In this document: positions 32,947 through 49,615 of the stretch, one piece after another
How the letters are laid out: each line of letters opens with the position of its first letter
How positions within the stretch are numbered: position 1 is the first letter of the stretch
Notes under the pieces: model-generated
What the model was told of the DNA's origin: nothing
Databases searched by the model: none
The model's input: the letters and a program-made list of their open reading frames with translations, nothing else
Assembly: GCA_963663765.2 (NCBI GenBank)
Contig: CAXXUA010000004.1
Span: forward strand, 928,001-992,000
Direction: 5' to 3'
DNA: 64,000 nucleotides
Source of the DNA: Candidatus Poribacteria bacterium
GTDB lineage: Bacteria; Poribacteria; WGA-4E; WGA-3G
Translations under genes and position numbers: made by a program

Positions 32947-35900
32947 TTATTTCATGGATTCTTGTAAATTTGATTTCCCATTTCTAAACCATTTCTCATC
33001 AGTTTTCTTCAACTTTTCAAGGTCATCAGGATTCTTAATATCTATTATGTGTGGGGTAATAATAAAGACTATTTCTGTATCTTGGATTTCTGTTTCTGTG
33101 CTTTTGAATAGTCTACCGAGTAATGGTATATCACCAAGTATCGGAACTTTGTTTTCGACCTCTTTCTGTTTTTTTCGAATGATACCACCAACGATGATTT
33201 GTTGTCCATCTTCTACGTCAATATATACACTCAATGAGTTGTCATCCGTAATCGGTGCATTAAAATCGGTAAACTCAATGAAGTTACTAGCACTGATACT
33301 CGTAATATCCAAACCGATAGTACGCTTGCCATCTTCACTAATTTGCGACTTTGCTATAAAGGGTGTAAGTTGTATATTGATACCAACAGGTGGGTCAATA
33401 AAATCATAGTTAAACAATGGTTGTGTAGCAGTATCACCAAGAATGCTGTTTGTATCAACACTTTGCAGGTATGGAATGCGCCGACCACTGCTCCATGTTG
33501 CAGGTCGACTGTCACGCGTCATAATAGTTGGTGTTGAAAGCGTCCTGACCTTATTCTCACGCATGAGCGTATGAAGCAACAACATATATTCTCGGGTCAC
33601 TAAACTATAGTTGAAGCCAGAAATTTCTTGCACAAGACCAAGTTCCGCATTCGCATCACCAATAAGTGGATTCGTTGGACTTAGTTCTATCCCTCCAAGT
33701 TTACGTTCATTCAGAGTCGCTTCTATCCCCAGTTTTGTCGCTTCATCAAGTGTCACTTCAAGAATCTTTATATCAATCCGAACTTGTCCACGCACAAAAT
33801 CCAACTTTTTGATCAATGCTTTTACTTGTTCCATATACCGACGACGGGTCGTTACAACCAAAGAATTGGTATCTGGATCCGCAAAAATTGTAACCTTACC
33901 GAACAACGAATTTATATCTACCGGTTCATCACCAGCGAAAACACTACTAATAAACCGTTCAAAACCGCCACCGCCACCGCCACCTTCTTGCTGTGCATCT
34001 TGCCATACTTGTGCAAGCACTTGTGAAATGGCATCTGCAGTTGCATATTCAAGCCGAATTGTCTCGGTGATCTCTCGCTGCTCATCTGGAGTCGGCACAT
34101 CAATCTGTTTAATAAATTCCTCGATCATATCAAAGTTGCGTTTAGTACCTGTTGACACGATCACTGCATTCAGATTCGCAAAAGGTTCAGCCGCAATATT
34201 CCCTGCTAAAGACCCCTGAGTCTGTGATGTAGAACCTCTACTCCGATCCCACCAATCATCATTCCAACCGCGACGACTACTACTGCTGCTGCTGCTTGCG
34301 TTCCCACCGAAATGTGAATTCAGAAGATTCGCAACATTTTCGGCATCAGCATATTTAAGGTAGATTATTTTTGTTCCCCATTCCTGTTCAGGCATGCTAA
34401 CATCAAGCTTCTTGATCAACTCATCAATCATAGGAAAATTCTGGGAAGCCGTTGAGATTAACAAAGCATTCAGACGAATATCGTACACAATATGTACATC
34501 ACCTTGAACTCCGAAACCGCCACCTGCTGACGCTTCACGGTTACTCTGTTCCCACCAGGGCCTATCACGGTCCGCTCCAGCACTACCACCCTCAAAAAGG
34601 TCCTGTAAATTAGCAGAAAGTGCCTCTGCATTCGCAAACTTCAACAGGTACATCTTGATCTCTTCCTGAGTCTCCGCCTGATCCAGTTCATCGATTATTT
34701 TTTCAATAATCGTAAAATTGCGTGGATCTGATGAAATGACAATAATATTGAGACGATCATTACGAGAGATGTTGACTAGTCCAACAATACCTTGAAAAAT
34801 GTCCTCTGTTATTCCCCGCTCGCGACGCTCTCTAATCAATCTCAGAATATCCTCTCTATCAAAACTCCTACTACCATTTTGGATATTTTCACCAGTGATT
34901 ATCTCTTCAAGCGTCGTTGCAACATCCTCCGCAGACGCAAATTTTAGTCGATACGTCCTTATCTCTGTCTGACTCGTCGGACCAGAATCGAGATGACTAA
35001 CAATCTCTTTTAGGATAATCAGGTTGTCTTCAGTCGCTTTGATGATGAGTGTGTTTGAGTTCTCATCGGCATATACCTTAACCGTACCTTCAATCAGTTC
35101 AACACCTAATCCCTGTTCAATCGCTTCCCTAATCTGTTCAGCATCAATACCTATTAAACCTTCCTGTGTTTTCTTCTCACCATCTTCTTCTTGAAAAACT
35201 TCGGAAAGTGTATCCTCTAATGAAGATGCTTCCGCAAACTTTAATGGAATAATTGCGATTTGTAATGGAAACTGTTCACCTGCATCAGCAAATTGTAGAA
35301 TTGATACGATTCTTCTCACATTTGACGAAATATCAGTGATTACAAGTGCGTTAGTCATCGCATCGGCAAATATGTTGGCTTGACTGTTCAACAAAGGTCT
35401 TAGCATATTCGCTTGTTCAGACGCATCCGTATTTTCTAACTGGATGATATACGTCCGAATCTCATCCGTCATTTCTACCTGTTCCGGCACCGCTTGGATA
35501 ATATTCACCGGAACGTTCATCACCGTAGCTTTTTCAAACGTAGTCACAAGGAGGGTACTATCAATTTTAACAAAGGTTAGGTTATACTGTGCAAGCACTG
35601 TCTTGATTTTTTCAATGACTTCATCAAGTGTTACGTTATTCAGGTTAATCAGAGAAAACCGCTTACCCGATATATCACTTTCACTCGCAATAATCGTTAG
35701 GTCAGTTTCTCGTGACAACCATTCAAACAAGTTTTTCAACTCTTGGCTTGTAAAGTTGAAGTTAAATCTTATGGGCCTGCCAGTTTCTTCATCCGTTTCT
35801 GCAACTTCCATCGTTCCTCCATCACCACGTTGCGCATACAAATCGCTTGGTGACACAGTCAGCAAACAGATGCTGAACAAGATAAATAAGATTAAACTCA

Positions 35901-35949
35901 GTTTTTGTGTCCTCTTCGGACATACTACGTTAACACAGGATAATATCAT
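32947..35949 (-). CDS. gspD: Type II secretion secretin (GspD-like), paralogue 1
   Basis: Same architecture and motifs as 29880-32897; start overlaps the upstream stop (ATGA). Confidence 0.88.
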   Translation of the reverse strand: MILSCVNVVCPKRTQKLSLILFILFSICLLTVSPSDLYAQRGDGGTMEVAETDEETGRPIRFNFNFTSQELKNLFEWLSRETDLTIIASESDISGKRFSLINLNNVTLDEVIEKIKTVLAQYNLTFVKIDSTLLVTTFEKATVMNVPVNIIQAVPEQVEMTDEIRTYIIQLENTDASEQANMLRPLLNSQANIFADAMTNALVITDISSNVRRIVSILQFADAGEQFPLQIAIIPLKFAEASSLEDTLSEVFQEEDGEKKTQEGLIGIDAEQIREAIEQGLGVELIEGTVKVYADENSNTLIIKATEDNLIILKEIVSHLDSGPTSQTEIRTYRLKFASAEDVATTLEEIITGENIQNGSRSFDREDILRLIRERRERGITEDIFQGIVGLVNISRNDRLNIIVISSDPRNFTIIEKIIDELDQAETQEEIKMYLLKFANAEALSANLQDLFEGGSAGADRDRPWWEQSNREASAGGGFGVQGDVHIVYDIRLNALLISTASQNFPMIDELIKKLDVSMPEQEWGTKIIYLKYADAENVANLLNSHFGGNASSSSSSSRRGWNDDWWDRSRGSTSQTQGSLAGNIAAEPFANLNAVIVSTGTKRNFDMIEEFIKQIDVPTPDEQREITETIRLEYATADAISQVLAQVWQDAQQEGGGGGGGFERFISSVFAGDEPVDINSLFGKVTIFADPDTNSLVVTTRRRYMEQVKALIKKLDFVRGQVRIDIKILEVTLDEATKLGIEATLNERKLGGIELSPTNPLIGDANAELGLVQEISGFNYSLVTREYMLLLHTLMRENKVRTLSTPTIMTRDSRPATWSSGRRIPYLQSVDTNSILGDTATQPLFNYDFIDPPVGINIQLTPFIAKSQISEDGKRTIGLDITSISASNFIEFTDFNAPITDDNSLSVYIDVEDGQQIIVGGIIRKKQKEVENKVPILGDIPLLGRLFKSTETEIQDTEIVFIITPHIIDIKNPDDLEKLKKTDEKWFRNGKSNLQESMK

Positions 35950-37250
35950 TGATAAACCCTCGCAATTAAAAGGACTTCCACAAGTATTTTGTTATCTTTG
36001 CTATCAGCGGACATTTGCAAGTCTCTCACTAATAACCATTTTGATTTCGTTTCAATCAACCGATTCAAGTTAACAACTTTATCTAATTCCGTTGTGAACT
36101 TTATTTTTATCGTGAAACTTTCTGGTGTATATGTTGTTTGTGCCAACTCTAACTTATCGGTAAGTTCCGATACTTGCTTCTGAATCATGCTAAAGTATTC
36201 CAGTAAGCCGGAAACCAAATTCTTCTTGTTCAGCACTTCACTATGGTTGTCAAGTAGATTAGTAAATTTCGCCAATATTTTGCTATCTCGTTGAAAATTA
36301 TACTTAGTTGTTGCTTCTTTTGCACCGATACCAAAAAATCCAGAAGACGGTTCCGTCTGTGTCTTGAAGAATTCGTTTTCAAAAAGAACTTTTTCTGCTC
36401 CAATAATATGTTGCTGTGATAAGGACAAAATAAGATCAATAAGTTCTATCCGAATAGAACCCGGGATTGATTCAGGCAAAGAAACGTAAGTCCATTCTTC
36501 AGGTTTCTGTTCCTTAGATTCCTTCTCCTTTTTATTGTCGTCAGAGTCTTGCGATGCATTCTCTTTGTCCGTATCCTCTTTTTCCTCATCAACAGATGGT
36601 TTCTCGGATTCGTCTTTGTTCTCATCAGGTTTTTCATTATCTTTTTCTTCTTTATCTTCACCTACATCTTCATCTTCATCTTCATCTTCATCTTCATCTT
36701 CTAACCACGCATTCAACAACATATCCATCGTATCATCTTCAATTTCAGATTCATCTTGTGCTTGTGTATCCTGTTTTGCCGATTCTAACTCAGCTTTGAT
36801 AGCATCACGTTCTGCTTCCAAATGTCTCTGATACAAGAACACCACTAAATTCCGTCGAGCTTGCGGAGAAATCTTCTCCGATCTTCGTCCAGGAACAGGT
36901 TCCATATTCATCTGGTAGTTCTGTGGAATTCCCGCCTGTTTGATGATTCCATTGATTTTTTCGCGGATCACCGTTTCAGGAAAATTTTCTGCAAAAATAG
37001 ATGTCGTTTTCCCACCATCAGCAATACCCATCTTCTGGTATAAATCCGATTCTATCGGTTTCAGAATCTTTGAAGCATTCACCAAGTCTTCTGACTTTTG
37101 CAATTCCAACTGTTTAGTCTTTATGTCCGAATTGGCAATCATACCATAGATACCCGGACCCAATTGCGTAACAACGGCTATGATAAGCACAAGCAGAAGC
37201 ACGCCGATTAATAACTTAGATTGTGTTGTGAGTTGCAGATCTAATTTCAC
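35946..37250 (-). CDS. Bitopic membrane protein, putative GspM/PilO-like, with a long acidic insertion
   Basis: N-terminal TM helix; C-terminal ferredoxin-like pattern (TIKIKF...LLVRDLQM); position between the PilM/N-like gene and the secretins. Confidence 0.55.
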   Translation of the reverse strand: MKLDLQLTTQSKLLIGVLLLVLIIAVVTQLGPGIYGMIANSDIKTKQLELQKSEDLVNASKILKPIESDLYQKMGIADGGKTTSIFAENFPETVIREKINGIIKQAGIPQNYQMNMEPVPGRRSEKISPQARRNLVVFLYQRHLEAERDAIKAELESAKQDTQAQDESEIEDDTMDMLLNAWLEDEDEDEDEDEDVGEDKEEKDNEKPDENKDESEKPSVDEEKEDTDKENASQDSDDNKKEKESKEQKPEEWTYVSLPESIPGSIRIELIDLILSLSQQHIIGAEKVLFENEFFKTQTEPSSGFFGIGAKEATTKYNFQRDSKILAKFTNLLDNHSEVLNKKNLVSGLLEYFSMIQKQVSELTDKLELAQTTYTPESFTIKIKFTTELDKVVNLNRLIETKSKWLLVRDLQMSADSKDNKILVEVLLIARVYQ

Positions 37251-37318: not shown

Positions 37319-39046
37319 TTATCTATCCTCTTCATTGTCTTCATTTGAGAATTCTATATTCCGAGGTGGCGGTATGTTCACATCATCCAAATTTGCTTCT
37401 TCATTCTCCGGTTCTGGCATAATAAATTCAATTTCAGGTTTGGGATGGCGTTTTTGAGCAAACTTCTGGATAGATGCATTATCAATTTGGCAACTTATCT
37501 TAACCTCAAATGTCGGTCTACGTTGATCACCCGTCGTTGTCGTCTCACCCGTCTCAATTTTGCTGAACAACTTTGAGTTACGTAGCGAACGATCCATCGC
37601 AATTATAGATTCGTTAGAATTCGCTTGTATATTAAACGTAATACGAGTCTTTGTTAGATCATCTAAATTCTTAACATCAAACGTCTTCCAAGCAACCTTA
37701 GTCCTATCATTAAAAAGCGTACTGAGTGTATGTAAAATATCTATCGGAGAAATCTGATGCGTCAATTTATCCGCAACTATAAGGTCAAGTGCAAGATTCT
37801 TGTTTGCTTGCGTTTGTTCCTGTGTCAAATTGGCTATTCTCCTATCCAACTCATCAACTTTTGAACCTTGAGTTCTACTCCAAGTCAGACTACCAAATAC
37901 AATAAATAGTATAACGATTCCACCAACTGTAGCGGCGAGTACTTGTTGACGTTTGCGACTAAATTCCGCACGTTTTTCACCGACCTCTTTCGGTATCAAA
38001 GAGACAGGTACTTCAGTTTCCAGAAGGTGAATACCGACACCTAAAGGTATCGCTAAACTATTACTATAAGATTCAATGGACGACAATGATGGTGATGTTG
38101 TATCCAATGTACCCGCTAAAAGTGGATTCCAAACCCGGGTGGGGATCTGCAGCTGCTGTTGACACGTCTGTGCTAATTCAGGAACCTCTGCGCCACCTCC
38201 GCATAAACGTATCTCAGAGATTTCCATCGGTCCGCCACCATTCACCTCACGTTCAGCCGCCGCTATAGAACGTACAAGTTCAGCAATGAAACGTCTTGAC
38301 CACGTACGCGTTGGGGGTTGACCAGCAGGAACTTGGCGCTTTTCCAGTTCAGCTGCTTCCTCATCCAACTCCAGCTCCGATTCAAAGAGCTCAGTTAACT
38401 GATCACCATTCACTGAAATTCTACGGGAAAACTGCAACGTATTACCATACATCAGACAGAATTCAGTGTTACCAGCACCAATATCTACAATAATTGTCCG
38501 TTCTGCATTACTTGACAAAGAACTCTGTGCAACTGACGATATCGCATACATAGATGGAATCACCGCTGTAGGTGAAATACCAACTTCTTTCAAAATATCA
38601 ATGTAACGTTCAACTGTTTCGCGTCTTGTTGATACCAATTCTACAGATAATGCATCCGGTGACCTTTGAATATCGTGATAAGTATATATCGCATCTTGAA
38701 CAGGAAATGGCAACTCCGTTTCGGCTGCCATTCCCACCATGGAGGGTAATTGTTCCTCCTGGGTCGCGGAGGGAAGGTTAGATAAACGTTTCGTTACCAC
38801 AAAACCACGAGGAATTGATATGCCAATCTCAATACGATGTTTGTTGAATAGGTTATACTTGATACCCAGTTGATTCCACAACTGTTTCACCGCACCAGCA
38901 ACTTGCTGAGGATCGTCCGGGTCAGGATTAGGTGTTACACCACCATCTATTAAACGTAATACACCTGCAACCTTTTCTATGTACAGTATCTTTATGGACG
39001 CATTACCGATGTCTATTGATATGACCTGATCTTTTGTCATTTGCAA
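37319..39046 (-). CDS. PilM-PilN fusion (GspL-like assembly platform protein)
   Basis: ISIDIGNASIK, IVDIGAGNT and LCGGGA actin-like motifs, then VSLIP, a TM helix and a PilN-like periplasmic domain. Confidence 0.8.
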   Translation of the reverse strand: MQMTKDQVISIDIGNASIKILYIEKVAGVLRLIDGGVTPNPDPDDPQQVAGAVKQLWNQLGIKYNLFNKHRIEIGISIPRGFVVTKRLSNLPSATQEEQLPSMVGMAAETELPFPVQDAIYTYHDIQRSPDALSVELVSTRRETVERYIDILKEVGISPTAVIPSMYAISSVAQSSLSSNAERTIIVDIGAGNTEFCLMYGNTLQFSRRISVNGDQLTELFESELELDEEAAELEKRQVPAGQPPTRTWSRRFIAELVRSIAAAEREVNGGGPMEISEIRLCGGGAEVPELAQTCQQQLQIPTRVWNPLLAGTLDTTSPSLSSIESYSNSLAIPLGVGIHLLETEVPVSLIPKEVGEKRAEFSRKRQQVLAATVGGIVILFIVFGSLTWSRTQGSKVDELDRRIANLTQEQTQANKNLALDLIVADKLTHQISPIDILHTLSTLFNDRTKVAWKTFDVKNLDDLTKTRITFNIQANSNESIIAMDRSLRNSKLFSKIETGETTTTGDQRRPTFEVKISCQIDNASIQKFAQKRHPKPEIEFIMPEPENEEANLDDVNIPPPRNIEFSNEDNEEDR

Positions 39047-41545: not shown

Positions 41546-41956
41546 CTATTGTCCTTGACCCTGTTGCATTTCACGATCCGCTATATATGTCATCATACTA
41601 ATTGACCGCGGTTTTCCCAAATGTTCCCAAAGCACCGTCAACTCAATCATCCGTAATCCCTCTATTTCATCCGATTCTAATTCTGTTACTGACGACTGCC
41701 ATTGGAATAGCGAATTCTCACCAAATTCACCACCATATTGACCGGGTTCCGGATAACCTTCCATCTCAATTTGTGCCATCTGATATTTAAGCAAGTAGAG
41801 TGCTGTTACGCGATTATCTGATAGTGCAACATTCCGTGAGGTATCACTAAAAACCTTCAACAATGCAGGAAAAATCGCTGCCATAACCGCTATAGTAACA
41901 AGGATTTCAGCAAGTGTAAAACCCTCTTCACTTGAGGAAATATTTCGCCGCTTCAT
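41546..41956 (-). CDS. Minor pseudopilin, GspI-like
   Basis: G|FTLAE motif; FQWQSSV...LRMIELTVLW. Confidence 0.78.
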   Translation of the reverse strand: MKRRNISSSEEGFTLAEILVTIAVMAAIFPALLKVFSDTSRNVALSDNRVTALYLLKYQMAQIEMEGYPEPGQYGGEFGENSLFQWQSSVTELESDEIEGLRMIELTVLWEHLGKPRSISMMTYIADREMQQGQGQ

Positions 41957-41957
41957 C

Positions 41958-42599
41958 TTACAAGTTGTTCCCTAAACCTAAGGTTTGAATCTCATCTGAC
42001 GATAACTTTTGAATACTGTTACGACCTGTTGATGCTTCAACATTAACCGCAATAAAGTGTTCCCTTACGTTCTGTAAATACACAACAGTATTCACTGAGG
42101 TCGCTGTCGGTGTGAAATATACGTAATCCACACCAGTCGATAAATTTTGTATAACGCCGTTATTCGTTGTAGAAAATGCCGTGATGGTTATGCCATCGTT
42201 CAGGGGTTTAGCAATACCCATGACTCCACCTGTGCGTGATACCGTAGGTTGACCTCCTTGTGTGGTTGTTGCTGCCGCAACCCTTCCCGCAGATGCAATC
42301 GGATTCTGCGCATCAAATGTTTCACTGGATGCCAACCAATACCTATTATTGCCAATATCAAAAACAACCAAATACGTAGTCCGTTCAGTAATTGCCATGT
42401 CACGTGCATAAGAAAAAGTATCAGCAATGGATTGTGCAGATGATTTTAACCGACGAGACGCAGCAAAACCACGCATCGCTGGCATGGAGATAGTTGACAA
42501 TACCGCAATAATTGACAAGACTATCATGATCTCCATTAGACTGAAACCATGTTCCGTACTTTTTCCAAAAGGCACTCGCATATACCTTAACATACACAT
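41958..42599 (-). CDS. Minor pseudopilin, GspH/FimT-like
   Basis: G|FSLME motif; ARDMAITE. Confidence 0.78.
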   Translation of the reverse strand: MCMLRYMRVPFGKSTEHGFSLMEIMIVLSIIAVLSTISMPAMRGFAASRRLKSSAQSIADTFSYARDMAITERTTYLVVFDIGNNRYWLASSETFDAQNPIASAGRVAAATTTQGGQPTVSRTGGVMGIAKPLNDGITITAFSTTNNGVIQNLSTGVDYVYFTPTATSVNTVVYLQNVREHFIAVNVEASTGRNSIQKLSSDEIQTLGLGNNL

Positions 42600-42629
42600 A
42601 CCCTCAACAGTAACATATATCTCAATAAA

Positions 42630-43070
42630 TTACATGCCACTTTCTATCATGTTTCCAATGTCTGCATCCATACCCAATCCACCAAGTTTCCCATCTTTAC
42701 CATAGGTGGATAGTTCATAGTCATAACCAGTTTTTTTGCTGGGATACCTATATTGATAATCGTTACTCCACGGATCTTTCGTTATTGGACTTACAAGATA
42801 TGGTCCTTTCCAGTTAGTAACATCCTGAGGGACTTGCCACAACGCATCTAATCCCTGTTCTGTTGACGGATAGGTGCCAACATCAAGATTATACTGAGAT
42901 AACGCAACACCAAGATTCGCAATTTCGTGACGTGCCTTGCCAACTCTCACATCATCCATGGAAACTAATGTTTTTGTAATACTCTTGTAAAGTCTTGGAC
43001 TAAATTGGACTACTACAGCTATAATTAGTACAATAAGGATACCAAGTAGAATTTTGTTTTGTGTTTTCAT
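42630..43070 (-). CDS. GspG-like pseudopilin domain on a non-prepilin membrane anchor
   Basis: YNLDVGTYPSTEQGLDAL, WKGPY, DPW and YGKDGKLGG present, but no G|FxxxE site; start MKTQNK at 43070. Confidence 0.85.
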   Translation of the reverse strand: MKTQNKILLGILIVLIIAVVVQFSPRLYKSITKTLVSMDDVRVGKARHEIANLGVALSQYNLDVGTYPSTEQGLDALWQVPQDVTNWKGPYLVSPITKDPWSNDYQYRYPSKKTGYDYELSTYGKDGKLGGLGMDADIGNMIESGM

Positions 43071-43119
43071 TTGTAAATCTTTGTTCCTTTTTGGCACCTT
43101 AAAACAGAAAAACGATAAC

Positions 43120-43575
43120 TCAATTAAACTCCGCTTCCTCATCAACCCAATTAGTTATATCTGCATTTAAATCTTCTCCACCCAATTTGCCATCTTTACC
43201 ATAAGAGAATAGGTCATAGTCATAACCGTAATGCGTACCGGGAAATCTATATTCGTAAGCAGTTCCCCAAGGATCGTTGGTTACAGGACTTTGGATATAG
43301 GGACCATCCCAGTTTGCAACATCCTGACTCGGTGCTCGCCACAACGCATCTAATCCCTGTTCTGTTGACGGATAGGTGCCAACATCAAGATTATACTGAG
43401 ATAATGCAACACCAAGATTCGCAATTTCGGTACGTGCTTTGCCAACTCTCGCATCGTCTATAGCCGTTATCACACGTGGTGCAATAAACGCAGCCAAAAT
43501 ACCTAAAATCGCAATAACAATCGTCAATTCTATCAGTGTCAAACCTGATTCATCGTTTTTCAACTGTTTAAACAT
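43120..43575 (-). CDS. gspG: Major pseudopilin GspG
   Basis: G|LTLIE; YPSTEQGL.AL; W.GPY; DPWG; SYGKDG..GGE...ADI.NW. Confidence 0.95.
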   Translation of the reverse strand: MFKQLKNDESGLTLIELTIVIAILGILAAFIAPRVITAIDDARVGKARTEIANLGVALSQYNLDVGTYPSTEQGLDALWRAPSQDVANWDGPYIQSPVTNDPWGTAYEYRFPGTHYGYDYDLFSYGKDGKLGGEDLNADITNWVDEEAEFN

Positions 43576-43715: not shown

Positions 43716-44939
43716 CTAACCACCTATCAATTTGTTCGCTTCAAATATCGGTAAAATCATCGCCACAGCGATAAAACCAATCAGTAAACCCATAAACAGA
43801 ATAACCATCGGACCGATAGAACCCGTCACACGTTCCAAATTCTTCCTAATCTCCATGTCAAAATAATCTGACAATTTTTTTAGCATTGTCACAGGTTCAC
43901 CAGACTCTTCACCCACAGCGATCATGTGTGTCACGAGTGTCGGAAAATCAGAACTTTTTTCAAGCTCACGTGATAACGTAGAACCTTGTTCTACCTCTCT
44001 CTCTGCTTCAGCGACAATATTACTGTACACCTTATTACCAATCGTATCTTTGACTACTTGCAGTGCAGGAAGCAACCGAACACCGTTCTCCAGAAGTGTC
44101 GCCATAGTGCGCGTAAAACGCACAATAGCAAACGTGCTAAATATTGACCCAAGCAGCGGAAGCTTAAGTTTAAACTTGTCAAATTGCAACTGACCAGATT
44201 CCGTCTGCAAATAATTCCTTAGCAAAATACTTATAGGAACAATTATCAATAAGCCTAACCACCAATAAGTACTCAGTACGTCCGAAATCCCAATGAGAAT
44301 TCTGGTCGGTACGGGTAAATCTCCACCAAGGTCTTCAAACATCGTCGTAAATTTGGGTATCACGAATATCATCAACACTGTAACCGAAAATATCATCAAC
44401 GAAAACAGTATAGCAGGATAGAAAAGAGCTGAAATAACTTGGTTTTTCAACAAACGCTGCCGTTCTGCAAAATCAGCAAGCCGTTCTAACACTTCACCCA
44501 ACACACCCCCGGTTTCTCCAGCCTTCACCATGTTCACATATAGATCTGAGAATACTTTTGGGTGTTGGTTCAGTGAATCATTAAAAGTTGCACCTTGCTC
44601 AACATTCTGCTTCACATCAGAAATAATCTTGTGGAATTCTGGATTGGCGATCTGATCCAACGTCACTTCTATCGCACGGGGAAGTGCAACGTGCGCATTT
44701 ATCAAGGCAGCTAACTGGTAGGTGAAAAACTCTACTTCTGCAGGTTTAATCTTACGAGAACCTATACTAAACAAACGTTTTGCTTGTGATTCAAGGACTT
44801 CTCCCTCCTCAACTATATTTGTCGGCCAATACCCCATCTGTTGCAGCTGAGCAATCAGGTCTGCACGAGAGTCTGCTTCTAAGGTATTACTTACTGTCGT
44901 CCCTGTATTCGTGATAGCTTCAAATTGATATCTTGGCAT
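43716..44939 (-). CDS. gspF: Type II secretion inner-membrane protein GspF/PilC
   Basis: LYVNMVKAGETGG.L, ALFYP, MIAVGEESG and MILPIF. Confidence 0.93.
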   Translation of the reverse strand: MPRYQFEAITNTGTTVSNTLEADSRADLIAQLQQMGYWPTNIVEEGEVLESQAKRLFSIGSRKIKPAEVEFFTYQLAALINAHVALPRAIEVTLDQIANPEFHKIISDVKQNVEQGATFNDSLNQHPKVFSDLYVNMVKAGETGGVLGEVLERLADFAERQRLLKNQVISALFYPAILFSLMIFSVTVLMIFVIPKFTTMFEDLGGDLPVPTRILIGISDVLSTYWWLGLLIIVPISILLRNYLQTESGQLQFDKFKLKLPLLGSIFSTFAIVRFTRTMATLLENGVRLLPALQVVKDTIGNKVYSNIVAEAEREVEQGSTLSRELEKSSDFPTLVTHMIAVGEESGEPVTMLKKLSDYFDMEIRKNLERVTGSIGPMVILFMGLLIGFIAVAMILPIFEANKLIGG

Positions 44940-45044: not shown

Positions 45045-46919
45045 CTACTCAGCTTCATCAAACTCATGTGCATCTTCTTGTGTCAGACGAAGTACCTCAT
45101 CAACCGTTGTTTGTCCAGCAGTGACCTTTTGCCAACCATCTTCACGTAGACTCTTCATCCCCATTTTAATTGCAAGCTTACGAAGTTCAGATGTAGATGT
45201 TTGTTGAAGAGACATATTACGTATTTCTTCCGACATAAATATCACTTCAAAGATACCGATTCGTCCTCGGTAGCCTCTTCCACGGCATTCCTTACAACCC
45301 CCCTCTTTCGCACGTGGTATCTCAAGATCCTCATCTACATGCACACCATTGTTCCTAAAGATTACTGCAATTTCATCAGCACTGGGACGATACATTTCAC
45401 GGCAAGATTTGCAAACACGTCTCGCTAAACGTTGCGCAATAATACCTTCAACCGTTGACGCAACCAAATAAGGTTCAACCTTCATATCAATCAAACGCGT
45501 GATAGCACCCGGCGCATCATTGGTGTGAAGCGTACTGAACACAAGGTGACCTGTCAACGACGTATGTATTGCCATCTCCGCTGTTTCATAGTCACGAATT
45601 TCACCAACCAATACCTTGTCAGGGTCCTGACGAAGGATATGCCGCAAACCTTCCGCAAATGAAAACTCAATATCAGGATTGACCTGAATCTGGTTGATCC
45701 CCTCTAACTCATATTCAACGGGGTCTTCAAGCGTTATTATCTTCACTTCAGGAGTATTGATCTCTTTCAAGCATGCATAGAGTGATGTCGTTTTACCACT
45801 ACCAGTCGGACCTGTGGCAAGTATAATGCCGTGCGGTTTATGAATCATGCGTTCGAACAGTGTATAATTCTCATTGGTAAGTCCCAATTCGGCTAATCCA
45901 AATTCAATTGATTGTCTGTCAAGGATACGAAGCACTACACTTTCACTATGCTGCGTTGCAACTGTCGGAACAGTTGAAACACGAAGGTCAATCTGACGAT
46001 CTCCCAAACTTCCAATCTCTTTGTTGATTTTACCATCTTGAGGACGACGACGCTCAGCAACATCCATGCCTGCCATGATCTTAATACGTGATGTAATTGC
46101 TGACTGCAAATACGCAGGCGGTTGCGGTTGGTCTTCTAACACGCCATCAACACGAAAACGAATCTTCAACTCACCCGGATACGGCTCAATGTGAATATCA
46201 CTCGCACCCGCACGCACCGCATCAATAATCATCTGGTCAACAGCATTCATCACCGTCGGATCCTGACTCAGATCCTTTTCGTCTATACCAAAGTCAACAA
46301 GTTGACCACGTTCAAATGTCGCAGCCGCACCGACCGGTCCCTTGATACCTCCACTCAAAAGCGAGGCAGCATCCTTACCATAGCAACGGATAATCGCTTC
46401 AGAAATTTCATCTTCATCTGCAATGGTCGTCTTTATATCACATTCTGTCAAAAACTCTATTTCGTCTATTAACATTACATCCTGAACATCCGCCATCGCT
46501 ATCGTAAGAACTTTACCCACAAGACGTAACGGTACAATCTTATTGCGATTTGCAAAACTTGGTGGTATTTTTTCAAGCGCGTTCTCTTCAGGTGATACCT
46601 CATCTAACCGAATGATCGGTGAACCCGTATCACGTCCTTTTTTCGCAAGTTCAAGCACTCGCTCAGATACATACTCAGTTATGATTGCTTCTTCCGAATC
46701 TCCCGCTTTCTCAATCTCATTCAAAATTTGTCTATACTTCTGAGACTCAGACTCTGGCGATTCCTCCGTCTCAATATCAGAATACACAGGCTTATTTACC
46801 CACCCTTCAAGTATCTTCTCATGTATTTCTTGATAGGCCTGCTCCGATATCAAATTCCCTTCTTTTAATACTTCAACAAGTGATTTTTGGGTAGATGTAC
46901 TACTAATCATAATAATCAA
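45045..46919 (-). CDS. gspE: Type II secretion ATPase GspE/PilB
   Basis: ASDIHIEP, RRPQDG, GPTGSGKTT, EDPVE, LRQDPD, GEIRD, STLHTND and CxxC..CxxC. Confidence 0.95.
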   Translation of the reverse strand: MIIMISSTSTQKSLVEVLKEGNLISEQAYQEIHEKILEGWVNKPVYSDIETEESPESESQKYRQILNEIEKAGDSEEAIITEYVSERVLELAKKGRDTGSPIIRLDEVSPEENALEKIPPSFANRNKIVPLRLVGKVLTIAMADVQDVMLIDEIEFLTECDIKTTIADEDEISEAIIRCYGKDAASLLSGGIKGPVGAAATFERGQLVDFGIDEKDLSQDPTVMNAVDQMIIDAVRAGASDIHIEPYPGELKIRFRVDGVLEDQPQPPAYLQSAITSRIKIMAGMDVAERRRPQDGKINKEIGSLGDRQIDLRVSTVPTVATQHSESVVLRILDRQSIEFGLAELGLTNENYTLFERMIHKPHGIILATGPTGSGKTTSLYACLKEINTPEVKIITLEDPVEYELEGINQIQVNPDIEFSFAEGLRHILRQDPDKVLVGEIRDYETAEMAIHTSLTGHLVFSTLHTNDAPGAITRLIDMKVEPYLVASTVEGIIAQRLARRVCKSCREMYRPSADEIAVIFRNNGVHVDEDLEIPRAKEGGCKECRGRGYRGRIGIFEVIFMSEEIRNMSLQQTSTSELRKLAIKMGMKSLREDGWQKVTAGQTTVDEVLRLTQEDAHEFDEAE

Positions 46920-49194: not shown

Positions 49195-49615
49195 CAAAGG
49201 TGTCAACTTAGCGATTCATATTATTGTAGGAGGGAAACCTTGAAATCCCGATTTTCTCACTCAAGGTAGGCGTGCTTTGTAAGCGCGCCCCCCAACTGCA
49301 GGCGTGCTTTGTAAGCGCGCCCCCCAACTGCACTCCCCTGCAGGCGTGCTTTGTAAGCGCGCCCCCCAACTGCAGGCGTGCTTTGTAAGCGCGCCCCCAA
49401 CTGCAGGCGTGCTTTGTAAGCGCGCCCCCCAACTGCAGGCGTGCTTTGTAAGCGCGCCCCCCAAAGGTAGGCGTGCTTTGTAAGCGCGCCCCCCAACTGC
49501 AGGCGTGCTTTGTAAGCGCGCCATTGCCAATCTTGTGTTTATCGGTGCACTTACAAAGCACGCCTACCGGGATGGGGTATTTAGCACTTGGCTTTTTCTA
49601 AAGTTGACACCTATG
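49195..49615. mobile_element. Family B-related MITE enclosing a REP tandem array
   Basis: CAAAGGTGTCAACTT / AAGTTGACACCTATG ends; flanked on both sides by GGTTTCCTAACC-centred hairpins. Confidence 0.7.
49266..49567. repeat. Tandem array of ~32-bp units, eight direct copies plus one inverted copy of the G(T/C)AGGCGTGCTTTGTAAGCGCGC REP
   Basis: Same core as the 3323-4230 array, with a CCCCCAA linker. Confidence 0.93.

Follow-up and report, generated by a model that had tools for sequence, protein, structure and literature searches.

A 64,000-nucleotide stretch of the genome of a Candidatus Poribacteria bacterium (contig CAXXUA010000004.1, positions 928,001 to 992,000 of the forward strand; referred to here as the window, in whose coordinates all positions are given) encodes a type II secretion system (T2SS) on its minus strand. 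The cluster comprises, in this order, gspE, gspF, gspG, a second gspG-like gene, gspH, gspI, gspJ, gspK, a gene for a PilM-like domain fused to a transmembrane (TM) helix, a gene for a protein that we call ORF434 (35946-37250), and a secretin gene. The genome (G000) is 6.35 Mb in size and the source contig 1.19 Mb; a Peptidase_A24 gene is present elsewhere in the genome, and the sequencing runs that contain the locus are sponge-associated. The canonical gspG is referred to below as G1 and the gene behind it as G2. Here, we present evidence that the predicted product of G2 joins the globular head of a major pseudopilin to a membrane anchor of the ORF434 family, describe how the gene appears to have arisen and persisted, and consider what a pseudopilin head tethered in this manner might do.

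A GspG head without a prepilin signal

The open frame of G2 extends from 42630 to 43145. Its start is uncertain; the probable one is the ATG at 43070, which yields a protein of 146 residues and corresponds to the Met at which P0002, a metagenomic orthologue described below, begins. An SLIEL string in the long frame upstream of G2 was set aside as a chance occurrence, as it overlaps the stop region of gspG and is followed by no hydrophobic stretch.

A preliminary description of this DNA had assigned to G2 a GspG globular domain lacking the G|FxxxE prepilin site and Glu5, and both points were borne out. The protein scores 110.6 bits on Pfam T2SSG (PF08334), and its AlphaFold2 (AF2) model, computed from a 48-sequence alignment (predicted local distance difference test, pLDDT, 90, with lower confidence at residues 21-40), consists of one continuous helix spanning residues 3-64 followed by the GspG head. 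This model superimposes on EpsG (4lw9_A) with an E-value of 9.9e-10, a root-mean-square deviation (rmsd) of 1.1 Å over 105 columns and 42% identity, and all ten invariant columns of the 48-sequence GspG alignment are retained. Neither the prepilin site nor Glu5 could be found by reading the G2 sequence or by scanning it with N_methyl (PF07963) and TIGR02532, whereas G1 matches T2SSG, N_methyl and TIGR02532. On TIGR01710, G2 reaches 91.9 bits (cut-off 88.85) and G1 141.7 bits, so that annotation pipelines would be expected to label G2 a major pseudopilin GspG despite its lack of the features needed to be one. The two proteins are 59% identical by BLASTP, with the N-terminal region of G2 aligned across a 7-residue gap and with little identity. 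The hydrophobic N-terminal helix of pilins and pseudopilins is not kept in G2, and residues 1-35 match the ORF434 family instead.

The N-terminal anchor matches that of ORF434

The preliminary description had aligned the N-terminus of G2 with that of ORF434. A composition-adjusted BLASTP comparison of the two proteins returned an E-value of only 0.30, in a different register. Because plain BLASTP thus gave no support for the alignment, genome-wide and profile tests were used in which real TM helices served as the null, the search space being the 41,526 six-frame open reading frames (ORFs) of at least 50 amino acids in the G000 genome (41,528 sequences for the profile search). With residues 1-36 of G2 as the query, the best non-self match was ORF434 (21.4 bits, E 3.4e-4; next match 11.8 bits), and with residues 1-45 of ORF434 as the query it was G2 (29.3 bits, E 1.2e-6; next match 9.2 bits). 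A profile built from the N-termini of 29 ORF434 orthologues of the genus, G000's own being excluded, matched the G2 frame with 40.8 bits (E 2.9e-10), and the first unrelated ORF followed at 12.3 bits (E 0.24). The alignment is thus upheld by reciprocal best matches across the genome and exceeds what TM helices produce by chance. As read from the alignment, G2 retains 10 of the 14 anchor positions that are invariant or nearly so in the ORF434 family. The profile also matched P0002 and P0058 (27 bits, E 6e-6), two 151-residue metagenomic proteins from ENA that are 58% identical to G2 and form the sole other cluster with this anchor at 90% clustering.

ORF434 matches no Pfam or NCBIfam family, and a sequence search of the PDB gave nothing below an E-value of 0.2. 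It was found in 38 of the 39 other genomes of the genus, the single miss being a genome that is 73% complete. The AF2 model, of middling confidence (mean pLDDT 64.7), contains a TM helix (residues 9-29), a long helix predicted as a coiled coil (residues 41-73) and a ferredoxin-like alpha/beta domain. This domain is split by a long, disordered insert rich in Asp, Glu and Lys (residues 171-251) that differs in length from orthologue to orthologue (total protein lengths 415-461 residues). Foldseek returned no match to the model at E 0.001 or below, only weak PilO and Amuc_1100 rows. VIA-align, run against 48,161 chains, placed PilO at the top (3jc8_Oa, Z 9.9; 2rjz_B, Z 9.9, rmsd 2.8 over 92), followed by EpsM (Z 8.3, rmsd 1.9 over 72 of 74), the PilO core (Z 8.2) and PulM (Z 7.5); only four chains, two of PilO, EpsM and the PilO core, reached a Z of at least 8. 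These structural matches, together with the place of the gene after that of the PilM fusion, led us to name ORF434 the GspM/PilO equivalent of the system, in agreement with the type assigned to it earlier. The PilM-fusion protein, which scores 124.8 bits on TIGR01175, under the cut-off of 133, is the expected partner of ORF434. The platform genes also resemble the pilus-like Amuc_1100/1101 cluster of Akkermansia: the Amuc_1101 model gives the PilM fusion 98 bits (cut-off 650), and ORF434 matches Amuc_1100 with a Foldseek probability of 0.95 and a VIA-align Z of 7.5.

These comparisons give good support to the view that G2 is chimeric, with a GspG head on the anchor of the protein that occupies the GspM position. 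The basic n-region and the hydrophobic stretch of 15-17 residues at the N-terminus of G2 would also suit a cleavable Sec signal peptide, from which a soluble periplasmic GspG head would be released, and in P0002 the hydrophobic stretch ends in A-x-G. Read by eye, however, G2 has no small-x-small site with a polar c-region after it, and a Pro stands behind the only Ser candidate; in ORF434, a bitopic PilO-like protein, the corresponding homologous stretch serves as the TM anchor, and the helix of the G2 model is unbroken. We consider cleavage very improbable.

Origin of the gene

The similarity between the two anchors is not confined to the coding sequence. The profile alignment begins three codons upstream of the G2 ATG, and the 19 nt before this ATG (AAGGAACAAA, GATTTACAA) match the Shine-Dalgarno (SD) region and first codons of ORF434 orthologues, with one 9-nt run identical to the orthologue in L068. 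Since the homology continues upstream into the ribosome-binding site (RBS), the graft was in all probability made at the level of DNA; it took in the RBS and the start region as well as some 35 codons. With the original GTG start gone, a new ATG lies at the position of Leu7, which leaves the SD-like element ~14 nt from the ATG. The anchor DNA is identical to that of G000's own ORF434 at 63 of 105 nt, including 12 of 35 third positions, and to that of the best ORF434 orthologue at 74 of 105 nt (22 of 35 residues); this low identity to all members of the family indicates that the graft is an old event.

Comparison with the empty sites of G052 and G016 delimits an insert (Table 1), and at their 3' ends and flanks G1 and G2 remain alignable as far as the CTGTT repeat that borders it. 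It is largely shown that the insertion point, between gspG and gspH, is a 5-nt microhomology. Such an insert would result if gspG had been duplicated in tandem, with CTGTT as the right breakpoint, and the 5' part had been replaced from the gspM-like gene, whether in one step or two. Terminal inverted repeats or other signs of a transposon were not seen when the insert ends were inspected by eye, no repeat search having been made there. We regard it as highly probable that G2 has the architecture described above and arose from a copy of gspG, extending from about codon 36 through the 3' flank, that was joined to the 5' part of the operon's gspM/pilO-like gene.

G1 and G2 share a 120-nt near-identical tract, which could mislead an assembler into a false join. 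Contigs of an independent DNA run, X6, nevertheless extend over 41900-42741 (gspH to the 3' end of G2) and 42988-43211 (5' end of G2 to the 3' end of gspG, no differences); they bridge both ends of G2, so that a filled site exists outside the source assembly. An orthologue is moreover present in other assemblies, and the source contig is long, and we consider an assembly artefact exceedingly improbable. Run X6 also holds variant contigs, one of which joins the G2 start region straight to the gspG stop, skipping 48 nt (43071-43120), and another of which aligns in part to G1 and in part to G2 (42742-43218); relatives in which the locus has a different form may be the source of these contigs.

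Table 1. Features of the T2SS locus in window coordinates
Feature	Position	Strand	Basis or remark
gspE	45045-46919	minus	ORF list and family matches
gspF	43716-44939	minus	ORF list and family matches
gspG (G1), canonical major pseudopilin with prepilin motif	43120-43575	minus	T2SSG 131.3 bits, N_methyl 29.5 bits, TIGR01710 141.7 bits
Matching tract in G1 (residues 40-79)	43339-43458	minus	Nucleotide alignment with G2
Direct repeat CTGTT, left copy	43103-43107	minus	Empty sites hold one copy
Insert relative to empty site, 497 nt	42606-43102	minus	G2, its own RBS and a gspG-like 3' flank; alignment with G052 and G016
Putative grafted segment from the 5' end of the gspM/pilO-like gene	42966-43093	minus	SD-like AAGGAA, first-codon remnants, codons 1-35
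G2, putative chimera, 146 residues	42630-43070	minus	GspM/PilO-type N-terminal anchor and GspG head
Putative conversion tract in G2 (residues 39-78)	42837-42956	minus	40 codons, 95% nucleotide identity; includes the 42836-42927 stretch
Direct repeat CTGTT, right copy	42606-42610	minus	Empty sites hold one copy
gspH-like minor pseudopilin	41958-42599	minus	N_methyl 27.2 bits; directly 3' of the insert
PilM-like domain, TM helix and periplasmic part (GspL-like fusion)	37319-39046	minus	PilM_2 104.7 bits
ORF434, GspM/PilO-like platform protein	35946-37250	minus	Structure, and position after the PilM-fusion gene
Secretin	32947-35949	minus	ORF list and family matches

The window also contains a tandem array of a 32-nt unit at 49268-49522 (7.7 copies, 88% matches), which is the source of repetitive ORFs on both strands.

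Gene conversion between G1 and G2

Positions 42836-42927 of G2 and 43338-43429 of G1 are identical at 91 of 92 nt (one mismatch, alignment columns 219-310), whereas the remainder of the head is ~65% identical at the nucleotide level, so that this match, to which the preliminary description had drawn attention, is real and not a product of chance. Nonsynonymous (dN) and synonymous (dS) divergence was estimated by the NG86 method. Within the tract, G1 and G2 differ with a dS of 0.11 and a dN of 0.033, and the G1 genes of G000 and its nearest species, G052, differ over the same 40 codons with a dS of 0.30; the conversion is therefore younger than the split between G000 and G052. The C-terminal 68 codons have diverged between G1 and G2 to a dN of 0.357 and a dS of 1.33, and between G2 and the G1 of G016 to a dS of 0.66. 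Recent duplication and gene conversion with gspG had both been proposed as the source of the identical tract. The synonymous divergence within the tract favours conversion; duplication of recent date is contradicted by the dS of 1.33 outside it and by the few third positions that the anchor shares with ORF434. As far as these sequences allow, the tract is best taken as the mark of a recent conversion in a gene that is itself probably old.

Phylogenetic analysis of the heads places the G2 forms within a subclade (support 97/97) that also holds the G1 proteins of G000, G052 and G016 together with P0059 and P0005, with end branches of 0.58 for G2 and 0.02-0.03 for G1. When the tract is left out (73 columns), the two G2 forms become one clade (87/82) inside this local G1 subclade. 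P0059 is identical to the G1 of G000 at 143 of 151 residues (hand count), which indicates that G2 evolves several-fold faster than G1. The conversion in G000 homogenised residues 39-78 with G1 and ends short of the anchor. It is largely shown, then, that the head of G2 has been repeatedly patched from the neighbouring gspG by conversion and that the anchor has not been overwritten.

The gspG genes themselves gave a further observation. Over 43339-43458, those of G000 and G052 are closer in protein to G019 and G010 than to G016 (dN 0.09 vs 0.20), although the flanking genes place G016 closest, a hint that gspG is a mosaic formed by recombination between lineages.

Distribution, selection and expression

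The two G2 orthologues are identical at 25 of 34 positions in the anchor and at 24 of 44 and 35 of 68 in the other parts, and that the anchor is the best-kept part between them we count as support for probable selection on it. Both frames are open; a crude, substitution-only simulation at 35% divergence left the frame open in 0.4% of 20,000 trials. G2 would thereby show gene conversion and selection acting on different halves of one small gene. Contigs of the RNA libraries X10 and X13 partially cover gspH, G2 and gspG, and one contig of X10, 42773-42927 (one difference), spans 63 nt specific to G2. Between G1 and G2 the minus strand showed no promoter-like or terminator-like site.

A considerable number of observations weigh against a functional role for G2, the first group concerning its distribution. 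The genomes of 40 relatives were searched with G2 and those of 111 other members of the family with P0002. The only match starting at residue 1 was G000's own, and a second copy beside gspG was found in none of the 111 genomes, each of which has one operon gspG; gspH lies directly behind gspG in all nine genomes whose gene order was read (G019, G010, G024, G001, G016, G005, G052, G011 and G054), and absence from the remaining family genomes rests on match tables. Nor does a contig of run X7 (10,147 nt), whose flanks are ~99% identical to those of G000 (7 differences in 655 nt and 10 in 898 nt), contain the insert. It joins 42554 to 43103 through 51 other letters, as many as there are in the diverged leader region of gspH (42555-42605), so that the X7 strain is without exactly the 497-nt insert. 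This absence from 111 genomes and from a ~99% identical strain indicates that G2 is dispensable. Farther afield, JGI metagenomes yielded no relative in scans with P0002 or with the G2 alignment; among GTDB species representatives (31 loci) no match began before query residue 6, and hence none of the 31 loci has the anchor; and among 1.84 billion representatives P0002 was the only full-length match (E 3.6e-91), the next (E 1.8e-42) covering the head only.

A second group concerns the protein and its expression. The omega (dN/dS) of the G2 branch, calculated for the C-terminal 68 codons in a three-taxon split, is 0.65 (bootstrap median 0.63, 95% interval 0.25-2.11), with values below 1 in 82% of 971 usable bootstrap replicates; the head is probably under relaxed constraint, and neutrality of that half is not rejected by the interval. 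C-terminal identity between G2 and G1 is 36 of 68 residues, against 69 of 72 for G1 between species, and a 2-nt indel has altered the last residues of G2 in G000, whereas P0058 retains a gspG-like C-terminus. The anchor is without three residues that are invariant in the family (Thr8, Thr28 and Gly31, ORF434 numbering) and without one residue of the TM helix. Counted from the ATG at 43070, its cytoplasmic peptide has 6 residues instead of the 12 of ORF434; its counterpart in PulM is the part needed for PulG binding. The distance of ~14 nt between the SD-like element and the ATG is long, and the RNA that covers G2 amounts to one short contig from one library, in which DNA carry-over is possible.

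Much of this would be expected of a near-neutral passenger, that is, an accident of replication or recombination, poorly translated and without a role, that is lost lineage by lineage and whose anchor looks conserved only through the narrow composition of TM helices. The absence of the gene from all 111 family genomes and from the ~99% identical strain, an omega interval that includes 1, the C-terminal frameshift in G000, the poor SD spacing and the very long G2 branches all fit such a history. It is harder to reconcile with two lineages that are 42% apart in protein and yet both open, where the crude simulation leads one to expect this in 0.4% of cases; with an anchor more conserved than the head, including polar flanks (TQNK, PRLYKSITKT) that TM composition does not explain; with the retention of ten out of ten family-invariant residues in the head; and with the long survival of the gene that a dS of 0.66-1.33 implies. 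On balance we think it rather unlikely that G2 is a passenger of this kind.

Sister genomes had been named at the outset as the place where a dead duplicate would betray itself, and their testimony is divided. Absence from the family genomes and the ~99% identical strain speaks against G2, whereas the intact orthologue with the same anchor in another lineage speaks for it and shows that G2 is not simply a dead duplicate. P0058 and the G1-type protein P0059 both have a longest contig of 74,911, which suggests synteny in that lineage. Since an old gene is here combined with clean empty sites in close relatives, the pattern suggests that filled and empty alleles have been exchanged by recombination, rather than many precise losses. 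That G2 persists as a presence/absence polymorphism is largely shown.

A possible role at the assembly platform

How pseudopilins are selected from the membrane pool and handed over to the filament is an open point in the biology of T2SS and type IV pili. According to a preprint on the Klebsiella Pul system (10.1101/2022.09.21.508927), PulL and PulM contact each other through their C-terminal domains and TM segments, deletion of the cytoplasmic N-terminal peptide of PulM nearly abolishes PulG binding, and PulM is regarded as a targeting factor for PulG and PulH. In laboratory work this targeting is attributed to GspM (PulM), specifically to its N-terminal peptide and its TM helix, and G2 appears to be a natural fusion of that part with a GspG head, kept in the operon.

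We propose that the G2 product would enter the inner membrane with its N-terminus in the cytoplasm, as an uncleaved signal-anchor protein that is not a substrate of the prepilin peptidase. Without Phe1, Glu5 and the pilin N-terminal helix, it would not be extractable into the pseudopilus. The GspM-derived juxtamembrane peptide and TM helix would position the GspG head either at the platform of GspL and GspM or on GspG molecules of the membrane pool, where it may modulate pseudopilus assembly, most likely by damping or capping and with no part in filament building; the long SD spacing suggests that it would be made in small amounts. We advance this mode of action, a membrane-tethered and non-extractable head that modulates assembly at the platform, with slightly less than even confidence. 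The preliminary description had likewise taken the head to be uncleavable and had seen in it a possible primer, brake or decoy. Should G2 dock at the platform, it would show how a dominant modulator can be built by simple means and would allow a test of which residues of GspM are important.

A more specific version, which we think rather doubtful, is that G2 acts as a natural 'stopper' subunit. It would take the usual place of GspM, docking either with the GspL/GspM platform or with the N-terminus of GspG in the membrane, and its head would mimic the next subunit at the base of the filament, so that a non-extractable cap limits the length of the pseudopilus or the rate of secretion. If so, presence or absence of the gene among near-identical strains would tune secretion between populations of sponge symbionts, and G2 would be a natural probe for the part of GspM that recognises pseudopilins.

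The same protein might instead work outside the T2SS, for example as a membrane-tethered module for binding or scaffolding in the periplasm, the origin of its anchor being a matter of history only; it would then be one of the many leaderless GspG-head proteins known from other phyla. GspG heads without a prepilin leader do occur widely: among the best 149 non-self representatives matching the G2 profile, 78 have a prepilin pattern and 71 have none, by a crude pattern of our own in place of a curated model; some of the 71 are truncated or have a degenerate motif. Those without the pattern comprise 33 with another hydrophobic N-terminus, 9 with a lipobox-like sequence, 25 with neither and 4 that are truncated; G2, with a T2SSG head, no prepilin motif and another hydrophobic anchor, has the features of this leaderless class, and its nearest ESM Atlas clusters are T2SSG-only. 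Against work outside the T2SS stand the position of G2 within the operon, between gspG and gspH and with no promoter-like site of its own, its exchange of sequence with gspG, and the conserved platform-protein positions, 10 of 14, that its anchor keeps. We judge such a role unlikely.

Comparison with known systems

The preliminary description had presented G2 as a component unknown in described T2SS. This stands in so far as no account of a GspM-type anchor carrying a GspG head was found in the T2SS literature, in the portions accessible to our search, and it needs qualification in so far as sequence collections, metagenomes among them, contain the class of leaderless GspG heads in good number. 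What is new is the GspM-derived anchor, which is in none of the 149 representatives. G2 resembles the leaderless metagenomic proteins, which include TM-anchored, lipoprotein-type, secreted and multi-head forms, in carrying a T2SSG head on a non-prepilin anchor; it differs from them in that its anchor is traceable to a partner protein of the same machine and its gene lies inside the core operon.

Several of these related proteins deserve mention in their own right. Eleven of them (P0061, P0064, P0065, P0068, P0070, P0073, P0078, P0081, P0088, P0122 and P0144) have 2-3 tandem GspG heads and no prepilin motif, some with lipoprotein-type or secretory N-termini, and P0064 has C-terminal leucine-rich repeats as well. 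P0063 (145 residues) joins a Poribacteria-type GspG head, 60-70% identical to the gspG products of the family, to a hydrophobic N-terminus of a further non-prepilin type; a search of 159 genomes of the order did not recover this N-terminus, and P0063 is either a real gene or the result of a miscalled start. An orphan third GspG-like gene of G000 lies outside the secretion clusters (L003 1459-1911; G000:C3, ~542.9 kb) and encodes Gln in place of Glu at +5 of its prepilin motif, and a copy of this type is present in nearly every family genome searched.

With the major pseudopilins GspG, PulG, EpsG and XcpT, G2 shares the globular head and a place adjoining gspG in the same operon as gspE, gspF, gspH-K and gspD. 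It differs from them in lacking the class III signal, Gly-1, Phe+1, Glu+5 and the pilin N-terminal helix, in a linker ahead of the head helix that is 7 residues longer, and in N-terminal 35 residues that are homologous to another protein family. The mitochondrial GspG of a eukaryotic T2SS-derived system, as described in PMC8134430, is like G2 in that it has a different N-terminal extension and matures without GspO, but it keeps the polar anchor, the TM segment and Glu+5, which are lost in G2.

The resemblance to GspM, PulM, EpsM and PilO is confined to the other end of the protein. The short cytoplasmic peptide and single TM helix of G2 have their homologues in ORF434, the GspM/PilO-like protein of its own operon, whereas the periplasmic coiled coil and ferredoxin-like domain are missing, the peptide has half the length, the TM helix has lost one residue and 4 of the 14 conserved positions are altered. 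In PulM, according to the Klebsiella preprint cited above, it is the N-terminal part that carries the contacts with PulG and, together with the C-terminal domain, those with PulL; G2 has a module of this type from the GspM/PilO-like protein of its own operon.

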